Source: an uncultured bacterium
GTDB taxonomy: Bacteria > Fidelibacterota > Marinisomatia > Marinisomatales > UBA1611
Assembly: GCA_964525185.1 (NCBI GenBank)
Contig: CAZGFQ010000001.1
Span: 29,486 to 93,485 of the forward strand
Reading direction: 5' to 3'
DNA length: 64,000 bases
In this document: positions 1 through 29,783 of the stretch, piece by piece
Numbering within the stretch: the first letter of the stretch is position 1
Layout of the letters: each line of letters begins with the position of its first letter
Notes under the pieces: generated by a model
The model's database searches: none
Told to the model about the DNA's origin: nothing
The model's input: only the letters and a program-made list of their open reading frames with translations
Position numbers and translations under genes: made by a program

Positions 1-326
1 TGTCCTGCCTGTATGCCTACTACGTGAGGTGTATAAACACATCCTTTTTGGTCAAGAACAACATGTTTTGATGGTGCCGCTGATGGAGTTGCTCCATCTG
101 AAACATACACAAGGACATTTTTTAAACCACCATTTCCATCAACAAGGAGCCATTCCTTTTTTGGTGGTGTTGTATTGTTGGCAACACAGACTGGGTCAGC
201 AGCAATTTTCAGTGGTTTCATTTTAGGCACTTTTCCTTCAAATGTAATTTTACCTGATACATCGCCACCAAGTAACACAGATACATTCAGTAAAAGGCCC
301 ATACTAATTATTAATGATTTTTTCAA
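1..326 (-). CDS. Secreted protein, N-terminal part only (gene runs off the window start); possibly cupredoxin-like
   Basis: The minus-strand frame is open from the window edge to TTG at 326..324, with GGAGG (332..336) 5 nt upstream. The product starts (M)KKSLIISMGLLLNVSVLLGG (signal-peptide-like) and continues ...VVLDQKGCVYTPHVVGIQAG. It is absent from the ORF track because it is truncated. The cupredoxin idea rests on memory of similar N-termini and is weak. Confidence 0.5.
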   Translation of the reverse strand, partial: MKKSLIISMGLLLNVSVLLGGDVSGKITFEGKVPKMKPLKIAADPVCVANNTTPPKKEWLLVDGNGGLKNVLVYVSDGATPSAAPSKHVVLDQKGCVYTPHVVGIQAG

Positions 327-390
327 AATTCCCTCCAAGATTTGTACAAATTTAGTAGCAGAAGTTAATAAATGATTTGGAAAAAGCGAG

Positions 391-430
391 ATAAAAAAGA
401 GCGGGATTAAAAATCCCCGCTCTTTTATTT
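391..430 (-). terminator. Rho-independent terminator after the 440..1705 gene
   Basis: Stem AAGAGCGGG (397..405) pairs with CCCGCTCTT (416..424) around a 10-nt loop. On the minus strand a T-run follows it (complement of the A-run at 393..398). Confidence 0.6.
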
Positions 431-439
431 TTCGCCAGT

Positions 440-1705
440 TTAGTGAGGTGCACCGGCTCCCAACCAACGACCAATAAGGTCAACAGCTGTAGTCATTTCA
501 CCTTCAACTGGGTCCCAAACGTCTGGACCGTCTCTATTTTCTTCACTTAACAGAAATGGTGCGTTTGGAGGCATTCGGTTGTCACGAAGACGATGCTTAA
601 TCCGACTGCTTCCCCAATCAATATCTGTTGCAGAAGTTAATGCAGTTTTGGTACCATTTAGTACTGGATGTTCTCCACCATCTGCACCATAGATAAACCC
701 ATCATATGAACTTAAATCCATTAAATGATAAGATTCATCAATATTGCCCCAATGGCATTCTACACATGGGGTACTATTGGTAAACCACATATTGTCGTCA
801 GTAAAAAATGGTAAAACATCGCTATTGAATGTTAAACCATCATCTCCAGCATAAGTAAATGGATCATCACCACCTACATTTAGATCGCCACCAGCTTTAA
901 GGTCTTCAACCCATGCTTCAATGAGCCCTAATGCATTAGGTACATTGTCGGGATCATCCCAACTTGTATACTGAATGGGTCTAATGACCGAAACAACACC
1001 ATCGCTGACACTAATATCTGGACCAAGGCGATTACTTTCGTCTCTCAAGAATTCCCATGCAGGTGCTTGAGGCATTCTGTTATTTCTCAAACGAGATCTT
1101 AACATGGCATTGTCCCATTCATAATCAGTATTTCCTGTCACGCTTTCACCAAATAATGGGTGACCACTACCATCTAGATTATCAGGATCTGGATCAGCTC
1201 CATACATCATACCTTCGAATGTACCAAGGTCCATTACATGCTTCGAATGAAGTTCTTCTTCATCATTTGCATAATGGCACCAAGTACATGCATCAGAACC
1301 GGGGAACCAGAAATTATCCGATGTAAACATGGGGTTAATATCTAGTGTATAGTCATATGAAGATCGCGATTCTGCAGTTACACTGATGATGATGCTTGCG
1401 CTTGCTCCTGATTCATCACCAACAACTGCAATAATAGCAGTCCCTTCAGAAATACCTGAAACTGTACCACCAGAAACGGATGCGACATTTTCATCACTAG
1501 ATGCCCAAGTATAACTTCCATCTGTACCATTATTGGTTGTTGCACTTACAGATACGCTACTACCACGAGCCACTGACGCTAATGCCGGGCTTACGGTAAG
1601 ATATACGCCTGCAGCTCCATCTGCTCCAGCCGGACCTTCGCAAGCCCAATTGGTCAGACTGAAAACTGTCAACAAGCTTATAACAGCTATGTTTGTTTTT
1701 TTCAT
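440..1705 (-). CDS. Secreted Big_2 (bacterial Ig-like) protein with two tandem c-type haem modules (CTWCH, CVECH)
   Basis: It has a signal peptide (MKKTNIAVISLLTVFSLTNWA). A Big_2-like stretch reads VSPALASVARGSSVSVSAT...YTWASSDENVASVSGGTVSGISEGTAIIAVV. Two internally repeated modules each carry CXXCH ... R(L)R(N/D)NRMP, and the C-terminus ends WLGAGAPH, like PSCyt1-type domains. A GGAGG sits 6 nt upstream of the ATG. Confidence 0.8.
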   Translation of the reverse strand: MKKTNIAVISLLTVFSLTNWACEGPAGADGAAGVYLTVSPALASVARGSSVSVSATTNNGTDGSYTWASSDENVASVSGGTVSGISEGTAIIAVVGDESGASASIIISVTAESRSSYDYTLDINPMFTSDNFWFPGSDACTWCHYANDEEELHSKHVMDLGTFEGMMYGADPDPDNLDGSGHPLFGESVTGNTDYEWDNAMLRSRLRNNRMPQAPAWEFLRDESNRLGPDISVSDGVVSVIRPIQYTSWDDPDNVPNALGLIEAWVEDLKAGGDLNVGGDDPFTYAGDDGLTFNSDVLPFFTDDNMWFTNSTPCVECHWGNIDESYHLMDLSSYDGFIYGADGGEHPVLNGTKTALTSATDIDWGSSRIKHRLRDNRMPPNAPFLLSEENRDGPDVWDPVEGEMTTAVDLIGRWLGAGAPH

Positions 1706-1777
1706 CTACTCCTCCTTTTTTAGGATCCTATTGTATTACCCTTGTGGATAATTCTTATTTGAAATGGAAACATATTT

Positions 1778-2929
1778 TTAAAAGAAAAACTGTGTTTCAA
1801 AATAAATTTGATCTTCATTGTCTGCATCATAAATATCCAAATTTGGCGCAGTACGGTAACGGTAAAAAATGGATGCTTGAAGATATTGGATAGGAAATAA
1901 TTCTAAACCAAAAGTCCAACGATCTCTTTCCTCAGTTGTCCACTTTGTCATCGGGTCCCAATGATCCCATGAAATTTTTAAATTCACTCCCTGGTAAAGG
2001 CGTGTATCAAGTGATAAATAAGTCATGGATTGGTCACCCACTTCATCATGTTTACCAAAATCACTCACTCCACTTCCATCTATATCTTTTTTCTGAAACA
2101 AATTTTTCTCAAACATCCATGTAAAAATCCCGTGGTTTCCACCAGCCAAAATTCCTGATACATATTCCGTTTGTTCATCGCCTTTATTAAATGAGAAAGA
2201 ACCACCAAATCTGAATCTTCTAAAAACCATAGAGCCTATTGTTGTAATTTGTTTATCAACAGCAGATGCATTTTGTCCATTTCCAACCGCTGTTATTAGA
2301 CTAAATGGACCTGGTTCAATACCAATTTCATATGCTGCTTCTTGTTTTCCATAAGAATTGAATCCTGTTTTCTGACGGATATATGATCCATCACCACCAT
2401 CATCTAATAATCGAAGACCAAAGGGCATCATAACTCTTCCAAATTTGATGTAACTATTTAGGGGCAAATTATAAACCATAGCAAATGCTTCACGATTAGC
2501 AGCTCCTGGAGCAAAATTTTCATCGATGTAAAATAACATGCGATCTGGTACTGCAGAAATTTCGAGATAAACATTTGCTTCAGGCATTGTAATTGAATTG
2601 TTATATCGCGGATCACCATCTTGACCAACTATATTTCGTGTCGAATCAGTTCCAATAATTGTTTTATTGGCTACACGAAAATTTGTCCCAATAGAAAAAT
2701 ATTCATTTATCATATTAGTGAACATGCCACTTTTACTTTTCGATTTAGCTTGAAAAGTTGGAAGGTTAGTTTGAGAATAAACAAAACCAAACCCCGTTCT
2801 TTTTCCGCCACCCGTTTTATTGACATGACATTGAGAGCATTTATACCCGGTTCTAACAGCTATATATGGTTCTGCTGATAAATTAGAAATTCCGATAAGA
2901 ATTATTGCAAGTATGATTAATTTTTTCAT
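1778..2929 (-). CDS. Fused monohaem cytochrome-porin, Cyc2-like architecture
   Basis: A signal peptide is followed by a single CSQCH at residues 31-35 (…YKCSQCHVNKTGGGKRTGFG). The remaining ~330 aa show alternating-hydrophobic beta-strand patterns and the protein ends in aromatic ...YFETQFFF, typical of outer-membrane barrels. The assignment is by architecture only. Confidence 0.55.
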   Translation of the reverse strand: MKKLIILAIILIGISNLSAEPYIAVRTGYKCSQCHVNKTGGGKRTGFGFVYSQTNLPTFQAKSKSKSGMFTNMINEYFSIGTNFRVANKTIIGTDSTRNIVGQDGDPRYNNSITMPEANVYLEISAVPDRMLFYIDENFAPGAANREAFAMVYNLPLNSYIKFGRVMMPFGLRLLDDGGDGSYIRQKTGFNSYGKQEAAYEIGIEPGPFSLITAVGNGQNASAVDKQITTIGSMVFRRFRFGGSFSFNKGDEQTEYVSGILAGGNHGIFTWMFEKNLFQKKDIDGSGVSDFGKHDEVGDQSMTYLSLDTRLYQGVNLKISWDHWDPMTKWTTEERDRWTFGLELFPIQYLQASIFYRYRTAPNLDIYDADNEDQIYFETQFFF

Positions 2930-3721
2930 TTATTCCGGAGCTCCAATTAGTACCCAAGTTTTAATTTGTTCTATTCTTTTGTTAGACAGGAAAGGGGGAC
3001 CATCTCGAGGCATTCTATCACCTTCTATATCTACACCAACCACTTTTTTTACGAGGTAACTCACATTTGGATACCATGGGTTGACTCTCAATAATTCGGG
3101 TACTTCAAATGCGGCATAATCCACTAATTGTTCATACGCCACTTCTTTTGTATTTAATAATAATTCGCCTGCCCCACTAGATGTGAGATGGCATGAACAA
3201 TTTTTATCAATAATATCATCATATACTATATCCCATGCGGATTCATCACTTATATCTAACGTATTGGAGAATGAACCAGTAGAATCAGGGTTTTCTAAAC
3301 TATTCCAAATGAAATCAACTTGTCCAGATGAACCATTTTCTCCATCAAATTCAATCCAAACTACAATTGAATCAGAACCTAATATTTCATCCCCAGAAGA
3401 AATGCCTTCAACCGATTCAATATTTCCTGTTAGAGTGATATCATTAATTGATAATGCTTCTGTCCCTGTATTTTTTAGGACAGTAACAACTTTTAATTCA
3501 TCACTACCTTCTTTAAATGGGATATCACTTAAGGATGTTAATGATATATCTAAGTGGCCAGCTTGGGGAACGAATGGTGTGCCATCAGGTTTAAGTTCAG
3601 AACCATCTCCCGCAAAAGATATTCCCATGGGGTCTCTCCAATCATCACCGCCACAGGAAATACATAATAATGCAATCATGAAAAGAGATATAATATTAAT
3701 TATTCTTAAGTCATTTTTCAT
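2930..3721 (-). CDS. Lipoprotein with C-terminal PSCyt1-like cytochrome domain carrying CSCH (CXCH) instead of CXXCH
   Basis: The signal/lipobox-like N-terminus is LFMIALLCISCGG. The C-terminal ...NCSCHLTSSGAGELLLNT...GDRMPRDGPPFLSNKRIEQIKTWVLIGAPE matches the remembered PSCyt1 pattern (C..CH...L.L...MP...L....I..WI..GA). A 4-nt ATGA overlap links it to the upstream gene, and it directly abuts the downstream gene. Confidence 0.7.
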   Translation of the reverse strand: MKNDLRIINIISLFMIALLCISCGGDDWRDPMGISFAGDGSELKPDGTPFVPQAGHLDISLTSLSDIPFKEGSDELKVVTVLKNTGTEALSINDITLTGNIESVEGISSGDEILGSDSIVVWIEFDGENGSSGQVDFIWNSLENPDSTGSFSNTLDISDESAWDIVYDDIIDKNCSCHLTSSGAGELLLNTKEVAYEQLVDYAAFEVPELLRVNPWYPNVSYLVKKVVGVDIEGDRMPRDGPPFLSNKRIEQIKTWVLIGAPE

Positions 3722-4638
3722 TGTGTTAACTCATAATCTTTTTTAAATAATTTGTAAATCAAGCTTTCCTTTTCACGTTGATCTAAGACATAATAGACAA
3801 GAGCCCATTTTCTCATTTGAAAATAAGTGTACATATCTTCTTCAGATTTATTATAAAGTTCATCCCCAGTAATTGACTTCTTAGCCCATGAGTCAAAAGC
3901 TTTAATATCGTCTTCCGAATACACAGCTTCTAAGTTGCTATAATCTCCAACAATATCTTCTCGAGCAAATCCAAAAATATCATCATCATATCCTGGCATG
4001 GGCGTCCCAGTCAATCCAGTTGAAAAAGTTCGATAAACATCAATTGGATCACTTCCTCCCTTAAAAGGATCGTGAGCAAAATCAGGAGGTACTATTGGAT
4101 TTCCCCAATCATTGACTAACTCATCAGATGTTGGTCCATCAGCATTCCCCTCTGGGCCATGACAGCTGAAACATTCCATGAGACGATATACCATTTGTCC
4201 ATCCTGAACTAATTCATCCGTTTTTTCTGGTACGACTGATGGAAGTTTTACTTCAGGAGCAGGTGTTTGAATAGTGAACTTTTCTGCAAAAGTTTTAATA
4301 TAGGATGTAACGTCAGCAACATCCTGTTCATTTAATATATTCTCCCAAGCGGGCATAGAAGTTCTAGTTACGCCATTTCGAATTGTTTTATGGATATTTT
4401 CATCTGTTGGAAGCGATCCTGATGGTGTCGTTCTAAAAAGGTATTTCCCTTTTGTAAAGTCTCGTGGAAGGGGAGATAGAACTATTGCAGCTGGACCATT
4501 TCCATTACCCGACATGCCATGGCACCCACTACAATTTGATTGGTATATTAATTTACCTTTATTTATATCGGGTAAATTATTTGCATTTCCAATGGTAATG
4601 AATATGGCAAATATTGAAATTATTTTAAATTTTTCCAT
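3718..4638 (-). CDS. Periplasmic dihaem class-I c-type cytochrome
   Basis: It has a signal peptide and two class-I modules: CSGCHGMSGNGNGPAA...TSMPAW and CFSCHGPEGNADGP...GTPMPGY. Confidence 0.85.
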   Translation of the reverse strand: MEKFKIISIFAIFITIGNANNLPDINKGKLIYQSNCSGCHGMSGNGNGPAAIVLSPLPRDFTKGKYLFRTTPSGSLPTDENIHKTIRNGVTRTSMPAWENILNEQDVADVTSYIKTFAEKFTIQTPAPEVKLPSVVPEKTDELVQDGQMVYRLMECFSCHGPEGNADGPTSDELVNDWGNPIVPPDFAHDPFKGGSDPIDVYRTFSTGLTGTPMPGYDDDIFGFAREDIVGDYSNLEAVYSEDDIKAFDSWAKKSITGDELYNKSEEDMYTYFQMRKWALVYYVLDQREKESLIYKLFKKDYELTQ

Positions 4639-5050
4639 TCGATCCTTTCAATGCTAATTCTTTAAAAGAAACATTACTTAGTATTTGATTGATTTCATTT
4701 TCAACTCGGTGCATCACATTTTGAAGTGGCTTACATTGATGTTGCCTACCACAATCTTCAAAATTCGTATCTTGACAATCAATCATATGCATTTCTCCTT
4801 CAAAAACCTCAATGACGGATTTCAACGATATATCACTGGGTGATTTAAGCAACTTATATCCACCATGAGTTCCTCGTATAGATTCCACAATATTATTTTT
4901 TACGAGTTGTTGTAAAATTTTGGAAAGGAACTCTTCTGGGAGATTTAATGCATCAGCAATTTCATGTTTGCTTTTTAAGTATCCTTTTGGATTAGAAGCG
5001 AAAAAACTCACCACTAATATGCCATAGTCACATGCTTTACTAATACCCAT
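4625..5050 (-). CDS. Rrf2-family transcriptional regulator (IscR/NsrR-like, three-Cys cluster motif)
   Basis: MGISKACDYGILVV...HEIADALNLPEEFLSKILQQLVKNNIVESIRGTHGGYKL is a typical Rrf2 wHTH. The CQDTNFEDCGRQHQC motif (C-x7-C-x5-C) suggests Fe-S binding. I prefer the ATG at 5050 over the track start at 5101 because Rrf2 proteins begin at this helix. A 14-nt overlap links it to the downstream cytochrome gene. Confidence 0.85.
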   Translation of the reverse strand: MGISKACDYGILVVSFFASNPKGYLKSKHEIADALNLPEEFLSKILQQLVKNNIVESIRGTHGGYKLLKSPSDISLKSVIEVFEGEMHMIDCQDTNFEDCGRQHQCKPLQNVMHRVENEINQILSNVSFKELALKGSNGKI

Positions 5051-5135
5051 AAATGTTTCTTTATTACTCCTTGATTCGTATAATGGACAAAATGAGTCCA
5101 CTTTCGATAAGAAAATATAGAAACTGAATATTAAA

Positions 5136-5169
5136 GTTAGATTAGAGTTAGATTAGAGAATTCTAATCT
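5136..5169. promoter_or_regulatory. Candidate operator: GTTAGATTAGA x2 tandem plus inverted repeat AGATTAGA-N4-TCTAATCT
   Basis: Two perfect 11-bp direct repeats lie at 5136..5146 and 5147..5157. An inverted repeat spans 5150..5157 / 5162..5169. The core GATTAGAGAATTCTAAT (5151..5167) recurs at 15301..15317 with one mismatch. The site lies upstream of the Rrf2 gene. Confidence 0.4.
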
Positions 5170-5630: not shown

Positions 5631-7163
5631 CTAAAAACGATATGTCAACCCAAAATAGCCAAAAGACCTTGTATAATCTGCATCTTTTGAATAATCAATA
5701 CTTGTATACATGTTTAAATATTTACCTATTTTTTTTGAAATACTGATAGAGAATGTATGCTGTGTAAAATCATTCCAATTATTTCCGAACCCAAAAGTAT
5801 ATATTTCATAATCAGCATTAAAAAAACCATTTCTCAAAATGGGCTTGGAAATACCCCATTTATTTTGGAAACCTTTTAACAATTGATTTTGAATCATAAT
5901 ACTATTCCAATCAATCGATAAGCCATTTTGCGTTGGGTTAGTTCTATAATTGAATGAACGTACAGAAGAATATTGATCTGTCCCAGATTCTCTTCTGAAA
6001 TTGGATCCTAATTGAAGGATGCCCCAACGTTTTGTTTGTACTTTGAAGGCGTTATACCATCCATTTTTTAATTCGGACTGAAATAAAGAATCTGGCACTA
6101 AAATTTGAGATTGTTGATAAATAATTTGTTGGCGAGATGTATACCGAGATCGAAAAGTTATTTTTCGGGTTAATTTAATTTTAAGTGAAAATTGTGAAAA
6201 TGTTGATTCAAGTATTTCTCTGTTATAAACAGGATTATTTCTGTAAAAATCGAATGTTTGATACAATTTGACGGATAATTGATTTATGGGAGAATAGGAC
6301 ATTTTTGAATAGATGAATTCACGATCAATATCTGATCCAGCGTATTGCCCAACAAAAGCAATGCTACCTGTAAAATGGTGTTTCGGAAATTTGACTTTTG
6401 AAAAAAGTCCTAATTTTTTTATGTTTGTATTGAATTGGTACGATTCTGGATCTGGTTGAAGTCCACCCAAACCACCAATAATAATATTTTTCATGAGCGG
6501 GGATGTTGCTAATAAACCATCTGTGGCACCAATGCCTGAAAGTTCTGATGCAAAAACTCTCCCCAATTGAAAGAATGGTCCTTTATTTTTTATACCAAAA
6601 CTTGCTCGAGCTTGGTAAAGGGTAAATTGTTGATTTTGTAAATTGCTTCTTCCATAAATACCTATTTTAAAATGTTTTAGAGCTGGAGCACTTAATCCAT
6701 ATTGCAATGTTCCAATTCCTGATTGTTCTGAGACTCCGTCGGGAAGCGATTGAATTGTGGACCGAATGGATAAATGCCCCGATTGATTCAATTTCAGTTT
6801 TTCTTTCTCAGGTTTTTGAGGTTGATTAGTGGCAGGAGCAATTGGACTATCTGGAATAATTACATTGGTTTTTTCAAATTGAACTCGATCACCTATTTGA
6901 ATGGATTCTATAGGAACAAGGGGGGAAGAGACGGATGAATTTTTAGCTGAATGGGTGATGACCAAATCGCCTATAATTTCTGATCGGCGGAAAAGTTGAA
7001 GTGTATCCCCTACAGAAACCCCCTGTGAAGTTCCAATATCACAATACACTTGGTCTGCTGTCAAGTAAGTGACTTTTCCCTGCCCCGTAATGATTTCCAT
7101 ATTCTGTCCAAAACCAATCGCTAACAGACATATAAAAAGATTCTTTTTTAAAATATTAATCAT
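5631..7163 (-). CDS. Outer-membrane beta-barrel protein (putative porin partner of the multihaem cytochromes)
   Basis: The preferred start is the ATG at 7163 (MINILKKNLFICLLAIGFGQ is signal-peptide-like), giving an 8-nt overlap with the upstream gene. The track start at 7277 would overlap it by 120 nt. The body has long alternating-hydrophobic segments and the terminus is ...YFGLTYRF. No family was recognised. Confidence 0.6.
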   Translation of the reverse strand: MINILKKNLFICLLAIGFGQNMEIITGQGKVTYLTADQVYCDIGTSQGVSVGDTLQLFRRSEIIGDLVITHSAKNSSVSSPLVPIESIQIGDRVQFEKTNVIIPDSPIAPATNQPQKPEKEKLKLNQSGHLSIRSTIQSLPDGVSEQSGIGTLQYGLSAPALKHFKIGIYGRSNLQNQQFTLYQARASFGIKNKGPFFQLGRVFASELSGIGATDGLLATSPLMKNIIIGGLGGLQPDPESYQFNTNIKKLGLFSKVKFPKHHFTGSIAFVGQYAGSDIDREFIYSKMSYSPINQLSVKLYQTFDFYRNNPVYNREILESTFSQFSLKIKLTRKITFRSRYTSRQQIIYQQSQILVPDSLFQSELKNGWYNAFKVQTKRWGILQLGSNFRRESGTDQYSSVRSFNYRTNPTQNGLSIDWNSIMIQNQLLKGFQNKWGISKPILRNGFFNADYEIYTFGFGNNWNDFTQHTFSISISKKIGKYLNMYTSIDYSKDADYTRSFGYFGLTYRF

Positions 7164-7962
7164 GTTCACTCCCTGATGGGTGGCATTGATAACAAGCATT
7201 AGAATTATAAATATATCCCGATTCATCATCATGTTCATCGTCCATTTTACTTTGACGATGATCATGGCATACCCCATTTAAACCACAGGAAAATTCAGTG
7301 TAATCATTGGGATTAATATGACATTCTGCCGTGCAGGAAGTCCACTCATTTCGATGCTTTCCATTATATATAGGAAATAAAATATCATGATGTGACATAT
7401 CAATGGGTGACCAGGACCATGTGTTATGGCAAAGAATACAATCGGTATTATCAGGATGATTTCCAGCAATAATACTTTCTGATATTTCGGATTGATGGCA
7501 ACCATCACAATCCGTAGGCAACCAAGATGACCAGTTTTGTGAATTGGTTTGATGGCATTGGTTGCACAAGAGTGATTGATGCATTCCTGCCAATGGGAAT
7601 AGAGTCAATTCATGGTTGAAACCGGAAACAGACGTTTCCCAACTAATGGGAGAATGACATCGCTCGCAATCTAATCCATTTGCTTCTTGATGAATATCGA
7701 AATGGCAGTCACTACATTCAGTTGATTGATTTGAAAATTGATGTTTTTCTTCAACTGTATTTCCAATATGACATTGAATGCAATCAGCAAATTTATGTTG
7801 CCCTAACAATGTATATCGTGTTGTATTATGGTTAAAAAGTGGCTCATGAGATAAAGGTAGCCATGATTGTTCTCCATGGCAATCTGAACAGTCCATTGTT
7901 GTAATAATTTGATTTTGACTTAAACCAATAGTCAGTGTTAGCGTAATCATAATCCAAATCAT
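7156..7962 (-). CDS. Multihaem c-type cytochrome, 8 CXXCH + 1 CX3CH
   Basis: By manual count the motifs are CSDCH, CIQCH, CSDCH, CERCH, CNQCH, CDGCH, CILCH and CYQCH, plus CTAECH. It has a signal peptide and a 4-nt ATGA overlap with the upstream gene. Its N- and C-terminal modules are paralogous to those of the 925-aa cytochrome. Confidence 0.9.
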   Translation of the reverse strand: MIWIMITLTLTIGLSQNQIITTMDCSDCHGEQSWLPLSHEPLFNHNTTRYTLLGQHKFADCIQCHIGNTVEEKHQFSNQSTECSDCHFDIHQEANGLDCERCHSPISWETSVSGFNHELTLFPLAGMHQSLLCNQCHQTNSQNWSSWLPTDCDGCHQSEISESIIAGNHPDNTDCILCHNTWSWSPIDMSHHDILFPIYNGKHRNEWTSCTAECHINPNDYTEFSCGLNGVCHDHRQSKMDDEHDDESGYIYNSNACYQCHPSGSEHD

Positions 7963-10736
7963 TTGAATATTGGTTTATTATATTTCTTTTGTTTTTTAAT
8001 CCAAAAACGTAATAAATCACCGTCATCTCCATCATCTTCACTTCCATTCGGATGACAATTATAGCAGGCAGAACTTTCATAAACATAATCCGATTCTTCG
8101 TCATGTTCATCATCCATTTCACTTTGATCATGGTCGTGACAAACACCGTTTAACCCACACGAAAAATCCGTATAATCATCTGGATTGACATGACATTCCG
8201 CCTCGCAGCTGGTCCATTCATCCTCGTGTTCTCCTGAATAAATGGGGAAGTAATCCCCATCATGATCAAAGGTCACATCATCCCAATCCTCCGTGGTATG
8301 GCAGGCTTCGCAATTGGTGGGATCCCCATCATTATGCTCTTCATAAAAATCTTCCATATGACAAGATGCACACCCCTCGGTAATAGATGAATGATTAAAA
8401 TCGACGTCTTCCCAATCTGATGTTGAAGTATGGCATTGTTCACATTCGGTTGGGAATCCATCATCATGTTCTTCTTCAAAATCCGCCATGTGGCAATCTG
8501 CACATCCTGTTGTGATGTTGGTATGTTCAAAGGTTGCTCCTTCCCATGTATCTGTTCCTGTATGGCAATTTTCACATGTTTCAGAAAAACCTTGTCCAGT
8601 TGTATGGGGCGGATTTGACGCATTTTGGTAATCCACAAAATGGCAGGTGGCGCAAGGCGCACTCAAAGTATGAGCATAAATATCAGGCGACCAACCTAAA
8701 GGATTATGACATTCTTCACAAATATCAACAGAATATCCATAAACACTATGGTCAGGATCAGTTGTTTCATTAAAATCGGATAAGTGACATTGGCCATCCT
8801 GACATGAATTTGGTGTATTATTAATAATATTATTGATGTGACAATCATTACAGTCAGTCGTTAAATGTAATCCAAACAGAATAAAAGATGTTTGATCTTC
8901 TGTATGGGGAAACGGATCAATAATCCATTCCGAGGAATTGGGGTGGCAGAGCGCACAATCTGTGCTAATATTATTATTGCCATGGATTGGATCAGTACTA
9001 TTTTCATGTTCCGGAGTATGACATTCTTGACAATTTGTTTCTGTGAAATTGACATGATCAAAAATCAATTCTTCCCAAGATTGATCCGCATGGCATAACG
9101 CACAATTGTTGTTTATATTATGAGATGTATGGTTATAATCTGACGTTGTGGAATTGGTTGTAGCCAACCCACCATCAATATGGCATCCAGAGCAGTCTGA
9201 TGGTAAATCAAAATTTCCAACATCATGGCATTGTTCACAATCGATTAAAGCGTGGGCTCCACCAAGAGGAAAGTCTGTTAAGGAATGGTCAAATTCTGCC
9301 CCTTCCCATGTTTCAGTTGAATGGCACACTTCACAATTTTGACTATATTGGTCATCTGAATGAGATGGAGAATCAGGATAAACAGATGTGCCTGTTTCAT
9401 TAAAATCTTGCTCGTGACAAGACCAACAGTCGTTGGGTGTATTATTGTATATTTCATTTACATGACAGGATTCGCAATTAGTAGTAAGGTGTGCACCTGT
9501 CAAAAGATAATCTGTTTGTGAGACTGTATGGGTGAAGGGCGAAATAGTCCACGATTCTGTTGTGGCATGACATACTTCACAATCGGGACTGATATTTCCA
9601 TCAGCATGTGGTGGGTTGATGGAATTGATTTGTTCGGGAATATGGCAGGATTTGCAATCCGTATTGGTAAAATTGATATGATTAAAAATAAGTTCAGCCC
9701 AATGTGATCCCACGTGGCAGTTTTCACAGGTTTCATTGATTTGATGTGACTCATGATCATAGTCCGATTGGAGAGAATTTGTCGAAGCTAATCCGCCATC
9801 AACATGGCACCCAGCACAATCCATTGGAAGATCATAATTCCCGTCGCCGTGACATTGGTTACAGGTAATTGTATTATGCGCATCTAGAAGTGGGAATTCC
9901 GTTTCATTATGATCAAAAACTGCACCTTTCCATGTGCTCGTTGAATGGCATGCTAAACAATCTTGAGAATACCCAGCTTCAATATGACTTGGAGCATCAG
10001 GGAAAACGGATGTTCCTGTTTCGATAAATTCTGTTTCATGGCAGGACCAACAATTTTCCGGAAAATCATATGTTCCCCCCGAATGACATTTAGCACATGG
10101 GGTAGATTTATGGGCTCCATCTAAAATAAAATCTGAAACTAATTCATGGACAAACGTAGATGGTGTCCAAGATGATTGACTCGTTGAATGGCATTCTTCA
10201 CAGTCAGTATTTAGTCTTGATTCGATGTGAGCTGGATTTGTGGAACGATCATAATCAAGCCGATGACAATCATAACAATCAGTCGGGGTCAAATCAAAGT
10301 TTGTCATAGGTGTTTCTGTGTGGCATTCCCGACATAGTGTTTGTTTATGAGAGCCTAATAATGAAAATTGTGTTAATTCATGATTAAATGTCTTAGTTGT
10401 GACTTGCCAGGAATCATTTCCATGACATTGAGCGCAGTCATTTCCTAACTTATTTTTATGTACATCCAGATGGCATGATGAACATTCATTTTCATCTAGA
10501 CTAAATTGATGCTTTTCAGCCACGGTATTTCCTTGGTGGCAAGATGCGCAATCTTGAATACGATGACTCCCTTGCAATGGGAAATTGGTTATTGAGTGGG
10601 AGAACCCTTTTAAACTCAATGTAGTCCAATCATCTCCGCCATGACAATCGCTACATTCAAGCCCAGCCACATTGAGTTCTTGATTCTGAGCAGAAATAGT
10701 CCATTGCAATAGCATGATTAAAAAGAACCTTTTCAT
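7959..10736 (-). CDS. Giant multihaem c-type cytochrome, 32 CXXCH + CX4CH + CX3CH
   Basis: It has a signal peptide (MKRFFLIMLLQWTISAQ). By manual count there are 32 canonical CXXCH motifs, plus CQDGQCH (residue 645) and CEAECH (residue 844). F.H..T.F.L.G.H....C..CH units recur throughout, and a 4-nt ATGA overlap is present at both ends. Confidence 0.9.
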   Translation of the reverse strand: MKRFFLIMLLQWTISAQNQELNVAGLECSDCHGGDDWTTLSLKGFSHSITNFPLQGSHRIQDCASCHQGNTVAEKHQFSLDENECSSCHLDVHKNKLGNDCAQCHGNDSWQVTTKTFNHELTQFSLLGSHKQTLCRECHTETPMTNFDLTPTDCYDCHRLDYDRSTNPAHIESRLNTDCEECHSTSQSSWTPSTFVHELVSDFILDGAHKSTPCAKCHSGGTYDFPENCWSCHETEFIETGTSVFPDAPSHIEAGYSQDCLACHSTSTWKGAVFDHNETEFPLLDAHNTITCNQCHGDGNYDLPMDCAGCHVDGGLASTNSLQSDYDHESHQINETCENCHVGSHWAELIFNHINFTNTDCKSCHIPEQINSINPPHADGNISPDCEVCHATTESWTISPFTHTVSQTDYLLTGAHLTTNCESCHVNEIYNNTPNDCWSCHEQDFNETGTSVYPDSPSHSDDQYSQNCEVCHSTETWEGAEFDHSLTDFPLGGAHALIDCEQCHDVGNFDLPSDCSGCHIDGGLATTNSTTSDYNHTSHNINNNCALCHADQSWEELIFDHVNFTETNCQECHTPEHENSTDPIHGNNNISTDCALCHPNSSEWIIDPFPHTEDQTSFILFGLHLTTDCNDCHINNIINNTPNSCQDGQCHLSDFNETTDPDHSVYGYSVDICEECHNPLGWSPDIYAHTLSAPCATCHFVDYQNASNPPHTTGQGFSETCENCHTGTDTWEGATFEHTNITTGCADCHMADFEEEHDDGFPTECEQCHTSTSDWEDVDFNHSSITEGCASCHMEDFYEEHNDGDPTNCEACHTTEDWDDVTFDHDGDYFPIYSGEHEDEWTSCEAECHVNPDDYTDFSCGLNGVCHDHDQSEMDDEHDEESDYVYESSACYNCHPNGSEDDGDDGDLLRFWIKKQKKYNKPIFK
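8805..10052 (-). repeat. In-frame tandem duplication (2 x ~208 codons, 8 CXXCH each) inside the 925-aa cytochrome gene
   Basis: Residues 229-436 (CWSCHETEFIETGTSVFPDAPSH...) align colinearly with residues 437-644 (CWSCHEQDFNETGTSVYPDSPSH...). A third, truncated copy starts at residue 645 with CQDGQCHLSDFNETTDPDH. Confidence 0.8.
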
Positions 10737-12139
10737 CGGATATCACCCGTGAGTTTGTGACAATCAACGCACCGGCTTGGGATAGGTTGATAGCGCGTAA
10801 ATATTCCCACCTCATCTCGTTCAGTTGGGTGGCAATCTTGACAAGGAACATTTTGATGTTTTCTGTCTAAAGGGAATTGGGTTGAATCGTGTTGAAATTC
10901 TATAGTATTAAATGATGCTGATATGTGGCAAGATTCACATGTATTATTGTAATGAATCGCAAATTGATTTCGGTGTTCATCTTTATGACAAATTTTGCAT
11001 TCCGGGTTTTCCCATGTAAACTGAATTTGTGATTTTCCCGATTTTGTCTGGTAGGGTTTATGACATTGATTGCACGGAACTGCCATATGCCCACCATCCA
11101 ATACAAAACGCGAAATAAGGTGCATAGAAAAAGTAAATGTGGTTGGTTTAAATCCATTTACGGTATGACATGCAGCACAATCGCCTCCATCTTGTCTTCG
11201 GGTAAATTGTCCTTCATGATAATCGGCATGGCACGCTTGACAAGAAAGGTATAAGGGGAGAGTACCTGCTAAAGTTTGGTTATGGCAATCCATGCATTTC
11301 ACATTTGCATGTTTTCCGTCCAATGGGTATTTCGTTTTGGAATGATCAAAAGATTTTGTTTTTTTCCAATTTTCTGTGATGTGGCAGGATTCACATTTAT
11401 TCCCGTAACTGCCTTTGTGATAATCAGTATGGCATGAAGTACAGGATTCAAAATCGATTCCGGTAAGTTGCTGAACGGGTGGATTCCAATCTAAATGTTT
11501 TGTATGACATTTTTCGCAATCCACTTTTTTATGGGCTCCAGTCAGATGAAATTGAGAATTTTTATGATTAAAAGATTTGGATGCATCGGTCCAATTATTC
11601 ACATTATGACATGATTGACAATCAGATCCAACTTCACCTTTATGAATGTCACTATGGCAACTTTGGCAATCTTGAGATAAACCTAAAAAAGTGCGATCTA
11701 ATACAGGGAATGTGGTATTTTCATTTGCCCATTTGATGATAGGTTCCCAGACAATATTTTCTGCAGAGTGACATTCTCCACATTTAACTTTTCTATGTTT
11801 ACCTTCTAATCGATATCCCGTTTCATTATGGTCAAATTTGGCCATATTTTTTGGCCAAAATACCAATTCAAATTCTTTTCCATTATGATCGGAGTGGCAT
11901 AGACCACAATCTTTTTTTCGATCATCCCGATGATAACCCTTGTTTTGGTCCATCTTAATTTTCAAAGGTGTATGGCATTTTACACAGCCATCTGAAATTT
12001 CTTTTTTACCCAACTCATGACATTGGACGCAATTGGAGGTGCCTTCCAAATCCGCGTGGTATTTGGATAAAGGTCCAGGGGAAAATTGACTAAATATTAC
12101 CGATGTCATCATCATGAATTGAAGGATCAGTTTTTTCAT
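10733..12139 (-). CDS. Multihaem c-type cytochrome, 17 CXXCH
   Basis: The count of 17 CXXCH motifs is manual. The ATG at 12139 gives a signal peptide (MKKLILQFMMMTSVIFSQ), whereas the track start at 12166 is a TTG. Confidence 0.9.
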   Translation of the reverse strand: MKKLILQFMMMTSVIFSQFSPGPLSKYHADLEGTSNCVQCHELGKKEISDGCVKCHTPLKIKMDQNKGYHRDDRKKDCGLCHSDHNGKEFELVFWPKNMAKFDHNETGYRLEGKHRKVKCGECHSAENIVWEPIIKWANENTTFPVLDRTFLGLSQDCQSCHSDIHKGEVGSDCQSCHNVNNWTDASKSFNHKNSQFHLTGAHKKVDCEKCHTKHLDWNPPVQQLTGIDFESCTSCHTDYHKGSYGNKCESCHITENWKKTKSFDHSKTKYPLDGKHANVKCMDCHNQTLAGTLPLYLSCQACHADYHEGQFTRRQDGGDCAACHTVNGFKPTTFTFSMHLISRFVLDGGHMAVPCNQCHKPYQTKSGKSQIQFTWENPECKICHKDEHRNQFAIHYNNTCESCHISASFNTIEFQHDSTQFPLDRKHQNVPCQDCHPTERDEVGIFTRYQPIPSRCVDCHKLTGDIR

Positions 12140-12172
12140 TTGGTGCACATTCAGGTTGCGTGTCAAGACACA

Positions 12173-13039
12173 TTAACCATAACTCTCATGCGTGATTTGC
12201 TTTTTCTCAATCCCCAAGCCATCCAGAGAAAGCAAGACAGATTCCAAAAATCTGGGGGCAGGGGCAATTCCTTCTTTTCGTGCAGAGATCTTTTCATATT
12301 TTGATATACCCGGACCGCACAAATAAATCTGTGGGTGGTCCATTTTAGCCAATTCTCGTTCAATCCGTTCAGGGGTGATTCTGCCTGTTTGATAGGGAAG
12401 ATTAAATCCATCCGGTTCTTCACGAGTGAATAAAAAATCAACCGTTAATTGATCAGGGAATTCCATTTGTAAATCGATCAATTGTTTTCCAAAAATGGTA
12501 TTGTTCCAAGATTGATTGCTATAAACCAAGGTGTGTTTGATATCCGGGTAAAATTTTAAGGCATATTTTAATATACTATAATTGGGGACAATACCACTTC
12601 CTGCACAAATGTGTAGAATTTCGCTGGGCAAGGGTTCATTTTTTGGCAATGTGTAAGGTCCCGTAAATCCGGTCACTATCATTTTTGAACCTTTGTGCGT
12701 TCTTTTCGCAAGGATTGGAGAAAGGAGAGGCGGATACTTGGATTTTCCCGGATAATACATTTCTTCTTTGATGGTAATAGCCAGATATTTTTCATCTGGA
12801 GAACTGGATAAAGAATAAGCTCTCGGACTTTCCTTTTTACCTTTTTTATCTTCCAAAAAAGCCGTCCATCTTTCCAATGCTACAAATTGATGGGGATCAA
12901 TGGTCAAAAAATGCCCTGGTTCATAATCCAATAAATCATTCCCGGTAAACAGAATTAATGTTGTTGTATCAGGCGTCTCTTCGATTACATCTGCGACCAT
13001 GATTTCAAGTTTTTTTATTTTTTTACGATTTGTGCTCAT
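12173..13039 (-). CDS. Ferredoxin-NADP reductase-like FAD/NAD(P)-binding oxidoreductase
   Basis: It carries RAYSLSS (the RxYS FAD motif), the ICAGSGIVP nucleotide-binding motif and LCGPG near the C-terminus. There is no signal peptide. Confidence 0.8.
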   Translation of the reverse strand: MSTNRKKIKKLEIMVADVIEETPDTTTLILFTGNDLLDYEPGHFLTIDPHQFVALERWTAFLEDKKGKKESPRAYSLSSSPDEKYLAITIKEEMYYPGKSKYPPLLSPILAKRTHKGSKMIVTGFTGPYTLPKNEPLPSEILHICAGSGIVPNYSILKYALKFYPDIKHTLVYSNQSWNNTIFGKQLIDLQMEFPDQLTVDFLFTREEPDGFNLPYQTGRITPERIERELAKMDHPQIYLCGPGISKYEKISARKEGIAPAPRFLESVLLSLDGLGIEKKQITHESYG

Positions 13040-13077
13040 GCTTAAAATAGCTTCTCTTATAGTATTAACGACTGAAA

Positions 13078-14391
13078 CTAAGCCTTTGCTTCAACTTTTT
13101 TCCCAAATTCAATCCCGATAGAATTAAGCAGAGGAAAGGGTAATTCACCACCGGCGAATATAAATGTATAATCATTTTCTAATTCAACGGAAGAATCGGG
13201 AGTTTGCAAGGTGACTGTGGTGTTCGTAATTTTTTTTGGATTAGAATTTAAAACAGCTTTCAATAATCCATTTGAAATTGCTTCTTCAATATGGGATTCA
13301 TTTCTCGCTTTCAGGCGAAAGAAATTTTCCTTCCGATAAGAAATGGTTACCTCATTCCCCTCCTGATGGGCAAGTCCCAGAGCAGCTTCAATGGCACTAT
13401 CTCCACCGCCAACGACTAAAAGTTTTTTATGTTTATAGGTTTCTGCATCAATGAGCTTATACATCACTTTCCCTAATTCTTCTCCTGGAATGCCTAATTT
13501 CCTAGGAGTTCCTCTTCTGCCCAAAGCTAACACGACTCTGGAAGCCGAGGCGGGGCCAGAAGATGTTTCTATCGTAAAATTCCCTTGTTCGCCTGCAATT
13601 CCTTTCAATTGATGATTTGAAAGTAATCGAACTTTTTGTTCTCGGATAACTTTTTCCCAAATTGCCAATAAATCTTCTTTTTCATATTCGCCTTTTTCCA
13701 AAGCGCCAAATAAAGGTAATTCTACTGGCTGAACCAATACCAACTTTCTTCTTGGATATTGCAAGATGGTTCCACCGGGTTGATCCTGATCCAATACTAA
13801 ATAATTGAGGCCCAATTCCTTAGCTCGCAATCCTGCGGACAACCCAGCAGGCCCTGCACCAATAATGACTACATCAAATTCAGCTTTTGAACTTTCATCC
13901 TTATTGCGATGTATATGATCCACAGCCGTAACGCCATGGCTGATGGCATTTTTAATTAAGGCTAAACCGCTCAATTCACCAATAATATAGAGCCCTGGAA
14001 TATTGGTTTCAAAATCGTCCGATAATTGAGGAATATCTTCTCGTTGACTGATATCTCCTAATCCAATTTCAATCCCAGAAACCGGACACGCTTCAGCGCA
14101 TTTTCCATGTCCTACACAATGGCTGCCGTGAATGATAGTTGCTTTCCCGTCAATCAATCCCAAGACTGTACCTTCTGGACACGCATCCACGCAAATACCA
14201 CACCCAATACATAGCGATTGATTTATGATCGGATGTTGTAACAAAGCTTTATCTTGTCTTTTTGCGCGGGTTTCCTCGAGTCGTTTTCGGGTAAGAGCGT
14301 CCTTTTTTTTCATGGTTTGAATGTAGGGAATCAAAAAAATAAGGATAATCATAATGCCGATTCCCCATGAGAGTAATAATTCTGTATTCAT
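13078..14391 (-). CDS. Membrane-anchored Fe-S flavoprotein (ferredoxin domain + FAD/NAD(P) pyridine-nucleotide-disulfide-oxidoreductase-like domain)
   Basis: It has an N-terminal TM helix, CIGCGICVDACP, and CVGHGKCAEACP (His in place of the second Cys), followed by DVVIIGAGPAGLSAGLRA and LLVVGGGDSAIEAA dinucleotide folds. The ATG at 14391 overlaps the upstream stop by 1 nt; the track start at 14403 is a GTG. Confidence 0.8.
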   Translation of the reverse strand: MNTELLLSWGIGIMIILIFLIPYIQTMKKKDALTRKRLEETRAKRQDKALLQHPIINQSLCIGCGICVDACPEGTVLGLIDGKATIIHGSHCVGHGKCAEACPVSGIEIGLGDISQREDIPQLSDDFETNIPGLYIIGELSGLALIKNAISHGVTAVDHIHRNKDESSKAEFDVVIIGAGPAGLSAGLRAKELGLNYLVLDQDQPGGTILQYPRRKLVLVQPVELPLFGALEKGEYEKEDLLAIWEKVIREQKVRLLSNHQLKGIAGEQGNFTIETSSGPASASRVVLALGRRGTPRKLGIPGEELGKVMYKLIDAETYKHKKLLVVGGGDSAIEAALGLAHQEGNEVTISYRKENFFRLKARNESHIEEAISNGLLKAVLNSNPKKITNTTVTLQTPDSSVELENDYTFIFAGGELPFPLLNSIGIEFGKKVEAKA

Positions 14392-15257
14392 CAAAACACC
14401 CACGTATAACCCATGGCAACGACCACGGTAACATGAATAATCATGATAACAATCATCGTGTATGCAAATGGCTTATGAATCACATGCCAATAATGAAAAA
14501 GAGAATGGGCTGCAGACCAAAATGCAATTTGTCGATCCATTTTAACAATTTGACGTAAAGAATGCTTAAAAGATTTCATATCGGAATCTGAAACAGAAGC
14601 GGATGATTGAATATCTTTTTTAATTTTTTGCCATTTGAACCAACCGGTAATATCCATAAAAAGGATAGTAAAAATGCCCCATAACCCTCTTTTTTCAATT
14701 TGATCTGCACCAGATAAATCTCGGATGTGGTTAATGGTTTGGTTAGAAATACTAAATTTATTTTGAAAAGTTTGAATGATGTTCGAGAGATTGTCTTTGA
14801 ATTCATCTCTTGTTAATTCTTTCCCACTGACACGATGAGGAATCTTGATATAGATATAACGTCCGATAAATCCACTGGAAGCCACAGCTACCATGGACCA
14901 ATAAGAGATAGAAACCAAACCACCAAATTTAAAAGCTGTATGAAAGGTGACGAGAATAGGTCCAGCTATTCCGAGAAAAATATGATAATTAAGCCATGTA
15001 GGCAATTTGCCCCATTTCTTAAAAATTCCAACACGCTTTCTCAGGGAATACGCAAACATAATGATCATCATTAAACTACCTGCAATTCCAAGTCCATGAC
15101 CAATAAATCCACCTGGTTTCCACGCGCGATGAAGAGCAATTCGGGGACGATCAATCATGGATGCACCATAATAGTCCCCCGCCGTCAGTAAAATCCACAC
15201 AACAAACCCAAAGGTTATGAATGAAAAAAAGGTAATGATATATCGATGGATATTCAT
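14391..15257 (-). CDS. Six-TM membrane protein with two H-x13-H pairs (candidate dihaem-b, ferric-reductase/NOX-like transmembrane domain)
   Basis: One TM helix reads YHIFLGIAGPILVTFH and the last reads HKPFAYTMIVIMIIH, each with two His exactly 13 residues apart. The preceding LRKRVGIFKKWGKLPTWLNYHIFLG resembles the ferric-reductase domain motif. A loop of ~100 aa separates TM4 and TM5. Confidence 0.55.
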   Translation of the reverse strand: MNIHRYIITFFSFITFGFVVWILLTAGDYYGASMIDRPRIALHRAWKPGGFIGHGLGIAGSLMMIIMFAYSLRKRVGIFKKWGKLPTWLNYHIFLGIAGPILVTFHTAFKFGGLVSISYWSMVAVASSGFIGRYIYIKIPHRVSGKELTRDEFKDNLSNIIQTFQNKFSISNQTINHIRDLSGADQIEKRGLWGIFTILFMDITGWFKWQKIKKDIQSSASVSDSDMKSFKHSLRQIVKMDRQIAFWSAAHSLFHYWHVIHKPFAYTMIVIMIIHVTVVVAMGYTWVF

Positions 15258-15288
15258 AACAAAAGTTACTTTAACAATTATGATAAAC

Positions 15289-15325
15289 AGATTAAAATTT
15301 GATTAGAAAATTCTAATATTAGAAT
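15289..15325. promoter_or_regulatory. Candidate operator in divergent promoter: TTAGA-N4-TCTAA-N2-TTAGA, includes perfect 16-bp palindrome ATTCTAATATTAGAAT
   Basis: GATTAGAAAATTCTAAT at 15301..15317 matches 5151..5167 at 16/17 positions. ATTCTAATATTAGAAT at 15310..15325 is a perfect palindrome. The site is centred between the gene starts at 15257 (-) and 15370 (+). Confidence 0.4.
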
Positions 15326-15369
15326 GGCAGTTATTTATACTATTCAGATGTAAATTAATAGATGAATCA

Positions 15370-16059
15370 TTGGAGCAGTTTGTGCACATTCTCATCATAG
15401 AAGATGAATCTTTTATTGGCGAACATATAAAATCGTCTTTGATAGATCGTGGGTTTTCCTGTAAATGGTTTCAGAATGGGGAAGATGGATTAGAGTCCGC
15501 TGTAGTGGATTCTTATGATTGTATTATTCTGGATAGACGCCTTCCAGATATGGAAGGGTTGGATATTTGCAAAGAAATTCGATATCAAGGCATCAGTACC
15601 CCCATTATTATGTTAACAGCAATGGCGGATATTGACCAAAAAGTGGAGGGGTTGAATGCTGGAGCGGATGATTATATGACTAAACCCTTTTCTGCCGATG
15701 AATTGATTGCACGGTTAAATGCCGTTGTACGTCGAATTACATTCCAAAAAAAACCAATACTTCAATTATCGAATGTAGAATTAAATCCATTAAAACGAAC
15801 TGTAAAAGTGGATGGCAAATTGATTACAATGTCAAATCGAGAATTTATATTATTACAATATTTAATGCACCATGGAGGAAAACCATTAACACGGAGTCAA
15901 ATATTTGATCATGTATGGGGTGATTCCGGAGGTTCCGAATCTAATGTAGTTGATGTATATATAAATTACATTCGTAAAAAAATTGATATAAATCCAAAAA
16001 TGGATTCGCACATTATTACAATGAGAGGATATGGGTATAGGTTCAATGAAGATGCCTAA
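15370..16059 (+). CDS. OmpR-family response regulator
   Basis: A receiver domain (ILIIEDE...ILDRRLPDMEGL...TA..D) is followed by a winged-helix output (LSNREFILLQYLM...VWG...NVVDVYINYIRKKI...TMRGYGYRF). The track start is a TTG, and an in-frame GTG at 15382 is an alternative. Confidence 0.9.
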   Translation: MEQFVHILIIEDESFIGEHIKSSLIDRGFSCKWFQNGEDGLESAVVDSYDCIILDRRLPDMEGLDICKEIRYQGISTPIIMLTAMADIDQKVEGLNAGADDYMTKPFSADELIARLNAVVRRITFQKKPILQLSNVELNPLKRTVKVDGKLITMSNREFILLQYLMHHGGKPLTRSQIFDHVWGDSGGSESNVVDVYINYIRKKIDINPKMDSHIITMRGYGYRFNEDA

Positions 16060-22085: not shown

Positions 22086-22093
22086 ATGTCACT

Positions 22094-23212: not shown

Positions 23213-23233
23213 AAGAAACCTCGTAATTTGAGT

Positions 23234-24025: not shown

Positions 24026-24043
24026 ATTGCTTTAGAATTCCTA

Positions 24044-24592
24044 TTAAACTTTTAAGAAGGATTCGGCATTTTCCCATTCGCCTTTTTCCCATTTGAAACT
24101 TTTTGTTTTATCTACAAGTATTTGACCGTCGGTTGCAACCGAAATTTTATATCGTTCCAAAGGTCGAGGGGCAGGTCCTTCAAAATTAATTCCAGTCATA
24201 CGAAAACCACTTCCGTGGCATGGACATTTAAATTTATTTTCCGTACCTAACCAATTAGGCGTGCACCCTAAATGTGTACAAACAGTTGAAAGAGCAAAGA
24301 TGGATTCTTCATCTCTAACCATCCACACATTATATTTCTTTTTATATCGAGTGTCCACAAAATTTGAAGCATAATCGTTGGGAAATCCTGCTTTAAAAGT
24401 TTGAGGTGGCTCAAATAATACGTTTGGAAAAAGAAAACGAACAATGACGGTGAAAAATCCACCCGTTGCGGCAGAAAATGCAATCCAACCCACTGTCATC
24501 CATCGGAAAAAACCGCGGCGTCCAAGCGCATTATCATCTTTTTCTGCTGGAGTTACAGAAGCAGGCGGTGTTGTTTTTATGTCTTCAGTCAT
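24044..24592 (-). CDS. Rieske [2Fe-2S] subunit
   Basis: It has CTHLGC and CPCHGS cluster boxes and an N-terminal GRRGFFRW twin-arginine-like anchor. Confidence 0.9.
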   Translation of the reverse strand: MTEDIKTTPPASVTPAEKDDNALGRRGFFRWMTVGWIAFSAATGGFFTVIVRFLFPNVLFEPPQTFKAGFPNDYASNFVDTRYKKKYNVWMVRDEESIFALSTVCTHLGCTPNWLGTENKFKCPCHGSGFRMTGINFEGPAPRPLERYKISVATDGQILVDKTKSFKWEKGEWENAESFLKV

Positions 24593-29772: not shown

Positions 29773-29783
29773 ACCAATTCTAC

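Follow-up and report, generated by a model that had tools for sequence, protein, structure and literature searches.

A candidate outer-membrane electron-entry operon with a relative of Cyc2 in an uncultured Marinimicrobia genome

Could a short row of haem-protein genes carry electrons across the outer membrane into the respiratory chain of a marine bacterium that is usually considered a heterotroph? The question is raised by a 64,000-nucleotide stretch of contig CAZGFQ010000001.1 (C1:29486-93485; hereafter, the window), part of a 97.9%-complete, 2.24-Mb metagenome-assembled genome (MAG) of Marinimicrobia. A first-pass annotation of its first 5,169 positions had likened a minus-strand operon encoding a regulator, several cytochromes and a Cyc2-like porin to the iron-oxidation operon rus of Acidithiobacillus ferrooxidans. 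From the sequence comparisons and structural models below, we read the operon with middling confidence as an accessory outer-membrane electron-entry module that would feed O2 respiration, most probably from Fe(II).

A five-gene operon around a porin-cytochrome

Window positions 440-5050 are predicted to form a single operon of five minus-strand genes. In order of transcription, these encode an Rrf2-family regulator (141 aa, 4625-5050; PF02082, E 1.3e-31), a periplasmic dihaem cytochrome c (306 aa, 3718-4638; CSGCH and CFSCH; Pfam Cytochrom_C, E 7e-18), a putative lipoprotein with a C-terminal cytochrome-c-like domain bearing CSCH (263 aa, 2930-3721), a Cyc2-like fused monohaem cytochrome-porin (383 aa, 1778-2929; single CSQCH at residue 31) and, as the last gene, a Big_2 protein (421 aa, 440-1705; PF02368, E 3e-7) with haem motifs CTWCH and CVECH at residues 140 and 314. 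Successive genes are joined by a 14-nt overlap, a 4-nt overlap, an exact abutment and a 72-nt gap. The signals of a common unit are these overlapping or abutting genes, a conserved operator-like repeat discussed below and, after the Big_2 gene, an intrinsic-terminator-like hairpin with a U-run (~395-426, minus strand). The hairpin has a 12-bp G+C-rich stem (fold z = -3.4) and keeps its position in four Marinimicrobia loci, where the stem sequences differ. Gene order, haem motifs, the 14-nt and 4-nt overlaps, the abutting pair and the hairpin were all present as first annotated.

The porin-cytochrome is the sole gene of its family in the genome. We judged it against the Cyc2 definition of Keffer et al. 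2021 and McAllister et al. 2020, which names a signal peptide, a single N-terminal CXXCH, a length of at least 365 aa and a C-terminal 16-strand OprO/OprP-like porin. The 383-aa protein starts with a hydrophobic leader typical of a signal peptide, ends in FFF and contains no CXXCH besides CSQCH. In its AlphaFold2 (AF2) model (pLDDT 80, pTM 0.79), a short haem segment at the N-terminus precedes 16 long strands. Foldseek returned 242 PDB matches to this model at E <= 1e-3, of which the top 50 were all outer-membrane porins or porin-derived entries, with OprP at rank 5 and OprO at rank 46. Cyc2 itself has been reported with OprP/OprO-like templates, an N-terminal haem and a 16-strand porin (PMC8406198; PMC13692758), and the window protein resembles Cyc2 of A. 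ferrooxidans, Cyc2PV-1 of Mariprofundus and Cyc2TAG1 of Ghiorsea in its signal peptide, single N-terminal CXXCH, length and predicted barrel.

The haem pocket differs. Keffer et al. define Cyc2 by AXPXFAR[Q/K][T/Y] before the CXXCH and PXL after it, and filtered their tree on the first motif with the screen PXFAR[Q/K][T/Y] (PMC8406198), a filter that the window protein would fail. It reads AEPYIAVRT instead of the first motif and GGGKR instead of the second. The deviations from the first motif (Phe to Ile, Arg to Val and Gln/Lys to Arg) are common to all 54 aligned family members, for which the family reading is AEPY[IL]A[VM]R[TS]. At the second, the family has an invariant GG(G)xR (Gly40, Gly41 and Arg44), and hhalign sets GGGkR opposite GPnL of motif-bearing proteins.

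For this comparison, a motif-bearing clade from Nitrosomonas and methanotrophs, where the family is named ‘cytochrome C’ (L084; alignment A5), served as a proxy for Cyc2 in place of validated Cyc2 sequences. Aligned with hhalign, the porin family (alignment A3) and this proxy matched at 95.7% probability (E 8.6e-9) over 166 columns, an N-terminal stretch that comprises the haem domain and the first strands. In the reverse search, a hidden Markov model (HMM) built from A5 matched the porin-cytochrome gene alone in the genome (E 0.004). A profile search of 401 Pseudomonadota genomes gave four weak matches, one of which (G222) is a motif-bearing, Cyc2-type protein with AMPSFARQT-GMP-CSSCH. None of the Pfam and NCBIfam models matches the porin-cytochrome or the motif-bearing Cyc2-type protein, which makes the absence of a match uninformative. 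Because both published signature motifs are lacking, we treat the porin-cytochrome as a sister family homologous to, but distinct from, canonical Cyc2. The original Cyc2-like call is weakened to that extent. The sister family comprises 377, 1071 and 2144 clusters (50% identity; library of 1.8 billion proteins) at E <= 1e-30, 1e-10 and 1e-3, respectively. It differs from Cyc2 also in its distribution, mainly in FCB-group phyla, Gemmatimonadota, Planctomycetota and Steroidobacteraceae, and in its genetic pairing, described below.

Fe(II) would be the likeliest donor because it is the sole substrate known for porin-cytochromes of this architecture, and the altered haem pocket makes other donors possible. 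Mn(II), reduced organic or humic shuttles or a sulfur compound at marine redoxclines might then be oxidized by the same porin-cytochrome design. This alternative would suit a pocket unlike that of canonical Cyc2 (GGGKR for PXL, IAVR for FARQ), and, judged solely by their isolate names, the closest relatives look like MAGs from Black Sea 150 m and Saanich Inlet. We nevertheless consider it improbable, given that the operon contains no typical Mn- or sulfur-oxidation enzyme and that Fe(II) oxidation is the only biochemistry known for the architecture (PMC8406198; PMC13692758).

To place the porin-cytochrome in its genomic context, we assembled a comparative set of 80 retrieved loci from about ten phyla, comprising Marinimicrobia, Latescibacterota, Calditrichota, KSB1, Fibrobacterota, Gemmatimonadota, Rhodothermales, Planctomycetota, Steroidobacteraceae and others. 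Counts out of 81 include the window’s own locus, and the retrieval pattern, G[YFL]KCSQCH from a narrow alignment, was too narrow to reach canonical Cyc2. A homologue of the small monohaem lipoprotein lies directly upstream of the porin gene in 56/81 loci and is its constant partner, an arrangement that sets the family apart from Cyc2. Its haem-binding position (window 3188-3199) varies across phyla: most loci have CXXCH, Gemmatimonadota CX4CH and some loci CX3CH, and the shortened CXCH (CSCH or CTCH) occurs in Marinimicrobia, Entotheonella and one Planctomycetia locus. A KSB1 homologue matches Cytochrome_CBB3 (E 3e-5). The ‘PSCyt1-like’ label first given to the lipoprotein had to be dropped, as neither this protein nor the Big_2 protein matches PF07635 even at E <= 10, and the KSB1 homologue reaches 12.9 bits against a cut-off of 22. 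Similarity between the lipoprotein haem domain and the haem modules of the Big_2 protein is marginal (E 0.022). In one Steroidobacteraceae locus (L073:7493-8335), the porin partner bears a CopC/Big_5 domain behind its cytochrome domain.

The dihaem cytochrome c, found upstream of the porin gene in 41/81 loci, matches Pfam Cytochrom_C/CBB3. Its analogy to the c4-type Cyc1 of the rus operon was not borne out: over residues 26-221 the protein matches chain B of PDB 6H5L (E 5.2e-52), the dihaem partner of a hydroxylamine oxidoreductase (HAO)-like octahaem protein from Kuenenia stuttgartiensis, compared with E 0.002 for cytochrome c4. Both would be small soluble electron shuttles. 6H5L, however, belongs to anammox nitrogen metabolism, whereas the window protein accompanies an outer-membrane porin and carries an additional C-terminal tail of ~85 residues.

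A cupredoxin and an oxidase beyond the window edge

Downstream of the hairpin, the window contains the first ~108 codons of a further minus-strand gene (1-326), which starts with TTG at 326, preceded by GGAGG, and continues beyond the edge to C1:29116. The first-pass annotation had suspected a cupredoxin in this fragment and named the lack of copper ligands as grounds for rejecting it. The complete gene (C1:29116-29811, 231 aa), with all copper ligands encoded outside the window, bears the suspicion out: an alignment of 21 homologues drawn from several phyla shows no variation at His121, Cys159, His162 and Met165, and the loop CDVHPWM has the C-x2-H-x2-M spacing of amicyanin. The AF2 model (pLDDT 88.7) matches pseudoazurin, amicyanin, plastocyanin and the type-1 (T1) domain of NirK at Foldseek probability 1.0, with TM-scores on the target of 0.58-0.71. 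No Pfam cupredoxin model matches the 231-aa protein at E <= 0.01, and a CarboxypepD_reg-like beta-sandwich flanks the cupredoxin domain. By modelled fold and ligand set, the product is a type-1 cupredoxin.

Directly downstream of the cupredoxin gene follow coxA (C1:27264-28985), coxC (C1:26655-27251), coxD (C1:26343-26648) and coxB (C1:25071-25910). CoxA has CtaD_CoxA, cytochrome c oxidase subunit I, as its best match, and the CuA motif of CoxB is intact; the oxidase is of the A family. This oxidase is an additional rus-like part that lay outside the stretch first annotated. A second aa3-type set, coxB-coxA-coxC-coxC, headed by a second Rrf2 gene (CX6CX5C), occupies C1:18801-25061 (L001:3801-10061); the two oxidase loci flank a divergent gene for an FNR/CRP-like regulator, and an SCO-like protein is encoded further on.

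With these parts, we infer an electron path in which the direction, the Fe(II) donor, the order of carriers and the regulatory signal are all derived by reasoning from the components. A reductant at the pore or inside it, most probably dissolved Fe(II), would hand electrons to a 16-strand barrel carrying a single c-haem at its periplasmic N-terminus. These electrons would pass to the haem lipoprotein and the soluble dihaem cytochrome c, possibly with participation of the Big_2 dihaem protein, and from there to the type-1 cupredoxin, CuA of CoxB and the A-family (aa3) oxidase, which would reduce O2. The Rrf2 protein would act as an iron-sulfur (Fe-S)-type repressor or activator, probably by binding an inverted repeat at 5151-5168.

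The A. ferrooxidans rus operon reportedly has the order cyc2-cyc1-cup-coxBACD-rus. The locus studied here likewise assembles an outer-membrane haem-porin, a dihaem cytochrome c, a type-1 cupredoxin and an aa3-type oxidase with CuA; the four types of component fall within 7 kb, with the qualification that the dihaem cytochrome is 6H5L-chain-B-like and not c4-type and that the porin belongs to the Cyc2 sister family. Further differences concern organization and host. The rus operon is one transcription unit, whereas the Marinimicrobia locus would comprise two, split by the terminator-like hairpin; it also has two additional haem proteins and an Rrf2 regulator at its head. Its cupredoxin is fused to the CarboxypepD_reg-like sandwich, and rusticyanin is outside the top 50 fold matches of this protein. 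The host has a neutral-pH, marine heterotroph-type genome lacking RuBisCO. The proposed rus analogue is supported in part: the cupredoxin and the oxidase strengthen it, and it is weakened by the departures from canonical Cyc2 and from a c4 cytochrome and by the place of cupredoxin and oxidase in the core chain.

An ‘uphill branch’ of electron flow had also been suggested. RuBisCO, the one carbon-fixation marker searched for, was not found in the 97.9%-complete genome, which leaves this branch without support and led us to reject Calvin-cycle autotrophy. The lifestyle would be lithoheterotrophy at most, in which the module would supplement heterotrophic growth.

Distribution and loss of the module

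Comparative genomics of co-occurrence had been proposed as a check on the module. The porin-lipoprotein pair and, less often, the dihaem cytochrome recur together across phyla at the frequencies given above. A cupredoxin, by comparison, shares the locus with the porin in 18/81 cases, the Big_2 dihaem protein lies downstream of the porin in 9/81, and the Rrf2 gene occurs in module loci of Marinimicrobia only. Outside Marinimicrobia, a sigma-54-dependent response regulator is encoded ~2 kb upstream of the porin in 22/81 loci. In about ten loci of Calditrichota, KSB1, Rhodothermales and Fibrobacterota, the cupredoxin gene stands directly beside the module. Oxidase genes less than 10 kb from the module were detected in Marinimicrobia and one Calditrichota locus only. 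A compact island in a second Marinimicrobia lineage, one found widely in ocean metagenomes, has the order cytochrome b and c, Rrf2, dihaem c, lipoprotein, porin, Big_2, cupredoxin, Rrf2, coxBACCD and CtaA; the succession of module, cupredoxin, cox genes and CtaA recurs in this lineage and in one Calditrichota locus. In two KSB1-like MAGs (L011 and L012), the region 3' of the porin gene encodes a ~600-aa membrane protein that matches cytochrome bd subunit I (E 3e-25); further cytochromes c and a cupredoxin also follow the module there, and the bd-like protein may be an alternative membrane acceptor.

Among 61 relatives screened for porin and cupredoxin, the porin family is patchy (14/61) and, within the family-level group, confined to the window’s genus. 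The cupredoxin, like the oxidase, was present in 39/61, and we rejected it as a module-specific gene. A genome of the same genus (G001; contig C28, loci L094/L095) is collinear with the window at 86-88% nucleotide identity, except for two cleanly deleted stretches. The first (window 596-5051) runs from the Rrf2 start codon into the Big_2 gene, of which the last ~50 codons remain, fused to the Rrf2 upstream region. The second (window 5891-17429) removed a PCC3-like multihaem conduit and left a stop-ridden porin remnant. G001 retains ferredoxin, cupredoxin, oxidase, Rieske/cytochrome b and haem A genes and amounts to a natural double knock-out. The loss of the block with the respiratory chain kept indicates that the five genes behave as one accessory block plugged into the core respiratory chain.

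Several observations weigh against an electron-entry route from Fe(II) to O2. Both cupredoxin and oxidase are core-chain components that occur in most relatives lacking the module and persist after its deletion, and their adjacency to it could thus be partly incidental. The terminator-like hairpin between the Big_2 and cupredoxin genes splits the module from its supposed acceptor, and most other phyla have no terminal oxidase within 10 kb. Since the porin-cytochrome departs from both Cyc2 motifs, the published evidence for Fe(II) oxidases transfers weakly to it. Haem attachment at CSCH has, to our knowledge, no precedent, and the lipoprotein may, therefore, not bind haem here. Lastly, Fe(II) is very scarce in open-ocean water.

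Some of these points would equally suit a non-respiratory role in the envelope, such as sensing or detoxification through Fe(II) oxidation, reduction of reactive species or redox reporting, with the oxidase merely a neighbour. The independence of the cupredoxin and oxidase genes from the module, the terminator that divides the two units and the pairing of the module with sigma-54 response regulators, not oxidases, in other phyla all fit such a role. Yet five dedicated redox proteins, bearing at least five haem-binding motifs between them, would be a heavy investment for sensing. The cupredoxin adjoins the module in several phyla, including cases with no oxidase nearby, and two Marinimicrobia lineages preserve the order of module, cupredoxin and cox genes although rearrangement has occurred. 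We regard a non-respiratory function as quite unlikely and retain electron entry into O2 respiration as the preferred reading.

Regulation, electron direction and significance

The likely start of the Rrf2 gene is the ATG at 5050, with the open reading frame extending to 5101. The protein matches NCBIfam rrf2_super at 104 bits and combines the winged helix-turn-helix domain with the three conserved C-terminal cysteines expected of Fe-S-cluster-binding Rrf2 regulators. The C-x7-C-x5-C pattern noted at first sight corresponds to Cys92, Cys100 and Cys106, which are invariant in nine Marinimicrobia Rrf2 proteins. Asp8 is also present; Asp at position 8 is described as the fourth cluster ligand in Streptomyces coelicolor NsrR (PMC5411485). 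The domain and the cysteines are shared with the Fe-S regulators NsrR, RirA, IscR and the SUF regulator. The window protein differs in scoring under all equivalog cut-offs (best, SUF regulator with 80 bits and RirA with 77 bits), in its spacing of CX7CX5C compared to CX6CX5C in its own paralogue and in having a respiratory operon as its putative target.

Upstream of the Rrf2 gene, we identified as a candidate operator an inverted repeat, GATTAGAATTCTCTAATC (5151-5168, minus strand), after which come direct repeats of TCTAATCTAAC. The arms of GATTAGAATTCTCTAATC are conserved in the relatives L004 and L010, with a variable centre. A second copy with 2 mismatches, for which 0.2 occurrences would be expected by chance, lies at 15301-15318 upstream of the PCC3-like multihaem operon; the common core of both is TTAGAA-N-TTCTAA. 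This shared repeat suggests that one regulator controls both the Rrf2/Cyc2-like and the PCC3-like operons. A second palindrome, TGGAC-N7-GTCCA (5084-5100, minus strand), lies after the repeat array and before the start of the Rrf2 gene and is conserved in L004, L010 and the deletion genome G001. A third element, the perfect palindrome ATTTGTACAAAT (340-351), is located between the terminator hairpin and the ribosome-binding site of the cupredoxin gene. It is identical in L004, has one mismatch each in L002 and L003 and is a candidate operator of the cupredoxin-cox unit.

The genes nearby include those of quinol oxidation and haem A synthesis, as first annotated and as confirmed by Pfam. On the minus strand, 19089-24592 encodes a Rieske protein (24044-24592), a split cytochrome b (23234-24025 and 22094-23212) and a 998-aa multihaem cytochrome c (PF00355, PF00033, PF00032 and PF00034). 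On the plus strand, 27363-30302 encodes the haem A synthase CtaA (27363-28295), SCO (SCO1; 28268-28891), the haem O synthase CtaB (28891-29772) and a DUF420 protein (PF02628, PF02630, PF01040 and PF04238). In addition to those on C1, the genome has several other clusters of multihaem cytochromes, on contigs C20, C32, C7 and C28, in which one open reading frame may contain as many as 17 CXXCH.

This neighbourhood bears on the direction of flow. Electrons might instead leave the quinol pool through the Rieske/cytochrome b complex and the 998-aa cytochrome c, reaching Fe(III), Mn(IV) or humics through the porin-cytochrome, or the flow might be bidirectional depending on conditions. Such an outward route would accord with the adjoining PCC3-like multihaem porin-cytochrome operon that bears the same inverted repeat, with the Rieske/cytochrome b complex and large multihaem cytochrome nearby, with the lack of an adjacent oxidase in most phyla and with the loss of both modules in G001. 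However, Fe(II) oxidases are the enzymes known to bury a single haem in the periplasmic end of a porin, whereas reductases use multihaem wires, and class-I-type cytochromes c with a blue copper protein are typical high-potential carriers to oxidases. Strict co-occurrence of the module with the PCC3-like conduit was, moreover, not upheld among relatives. Outward flow, therefore, appears rather unlikely, and inward flow towards O2 remains the reading we favour.

In the dark ocean and in oxygen-deficient waters, Marinimicrobia (SAR406) rank with the most abundant bacteria that are still uncultured, and they are usually treated as heterotrophs. A literature search found no report of Cyc2 in Marinimicrobia, nor of a constant lipoprotein partner; metagenome surveys list ‘Cyc2-like’ genes in MAGs of other FCB phyla. 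We tentatively propose, as a possibility short of even confidence, that pelagic Marinimicrobia at oxic-anoxic interfaces gain energy by oxidizing Fe(II) or another reduced metal with O2, using a Cyc2 sister family obligately paired with a CXCH-drifted haem lipoprotein in a module that is gained and lost as a block. Motif-based surveys would miss this porin family, and those relying on HMM scores only may file it as canonical Cyc2. The deletion genome G001 offers an in situ comparison of strains with and without the module. If true, the proposal would add metal-driven lithoheterotrophy to the repertoire of Marinimicrobia and link them to iron cycling at redoxclines.

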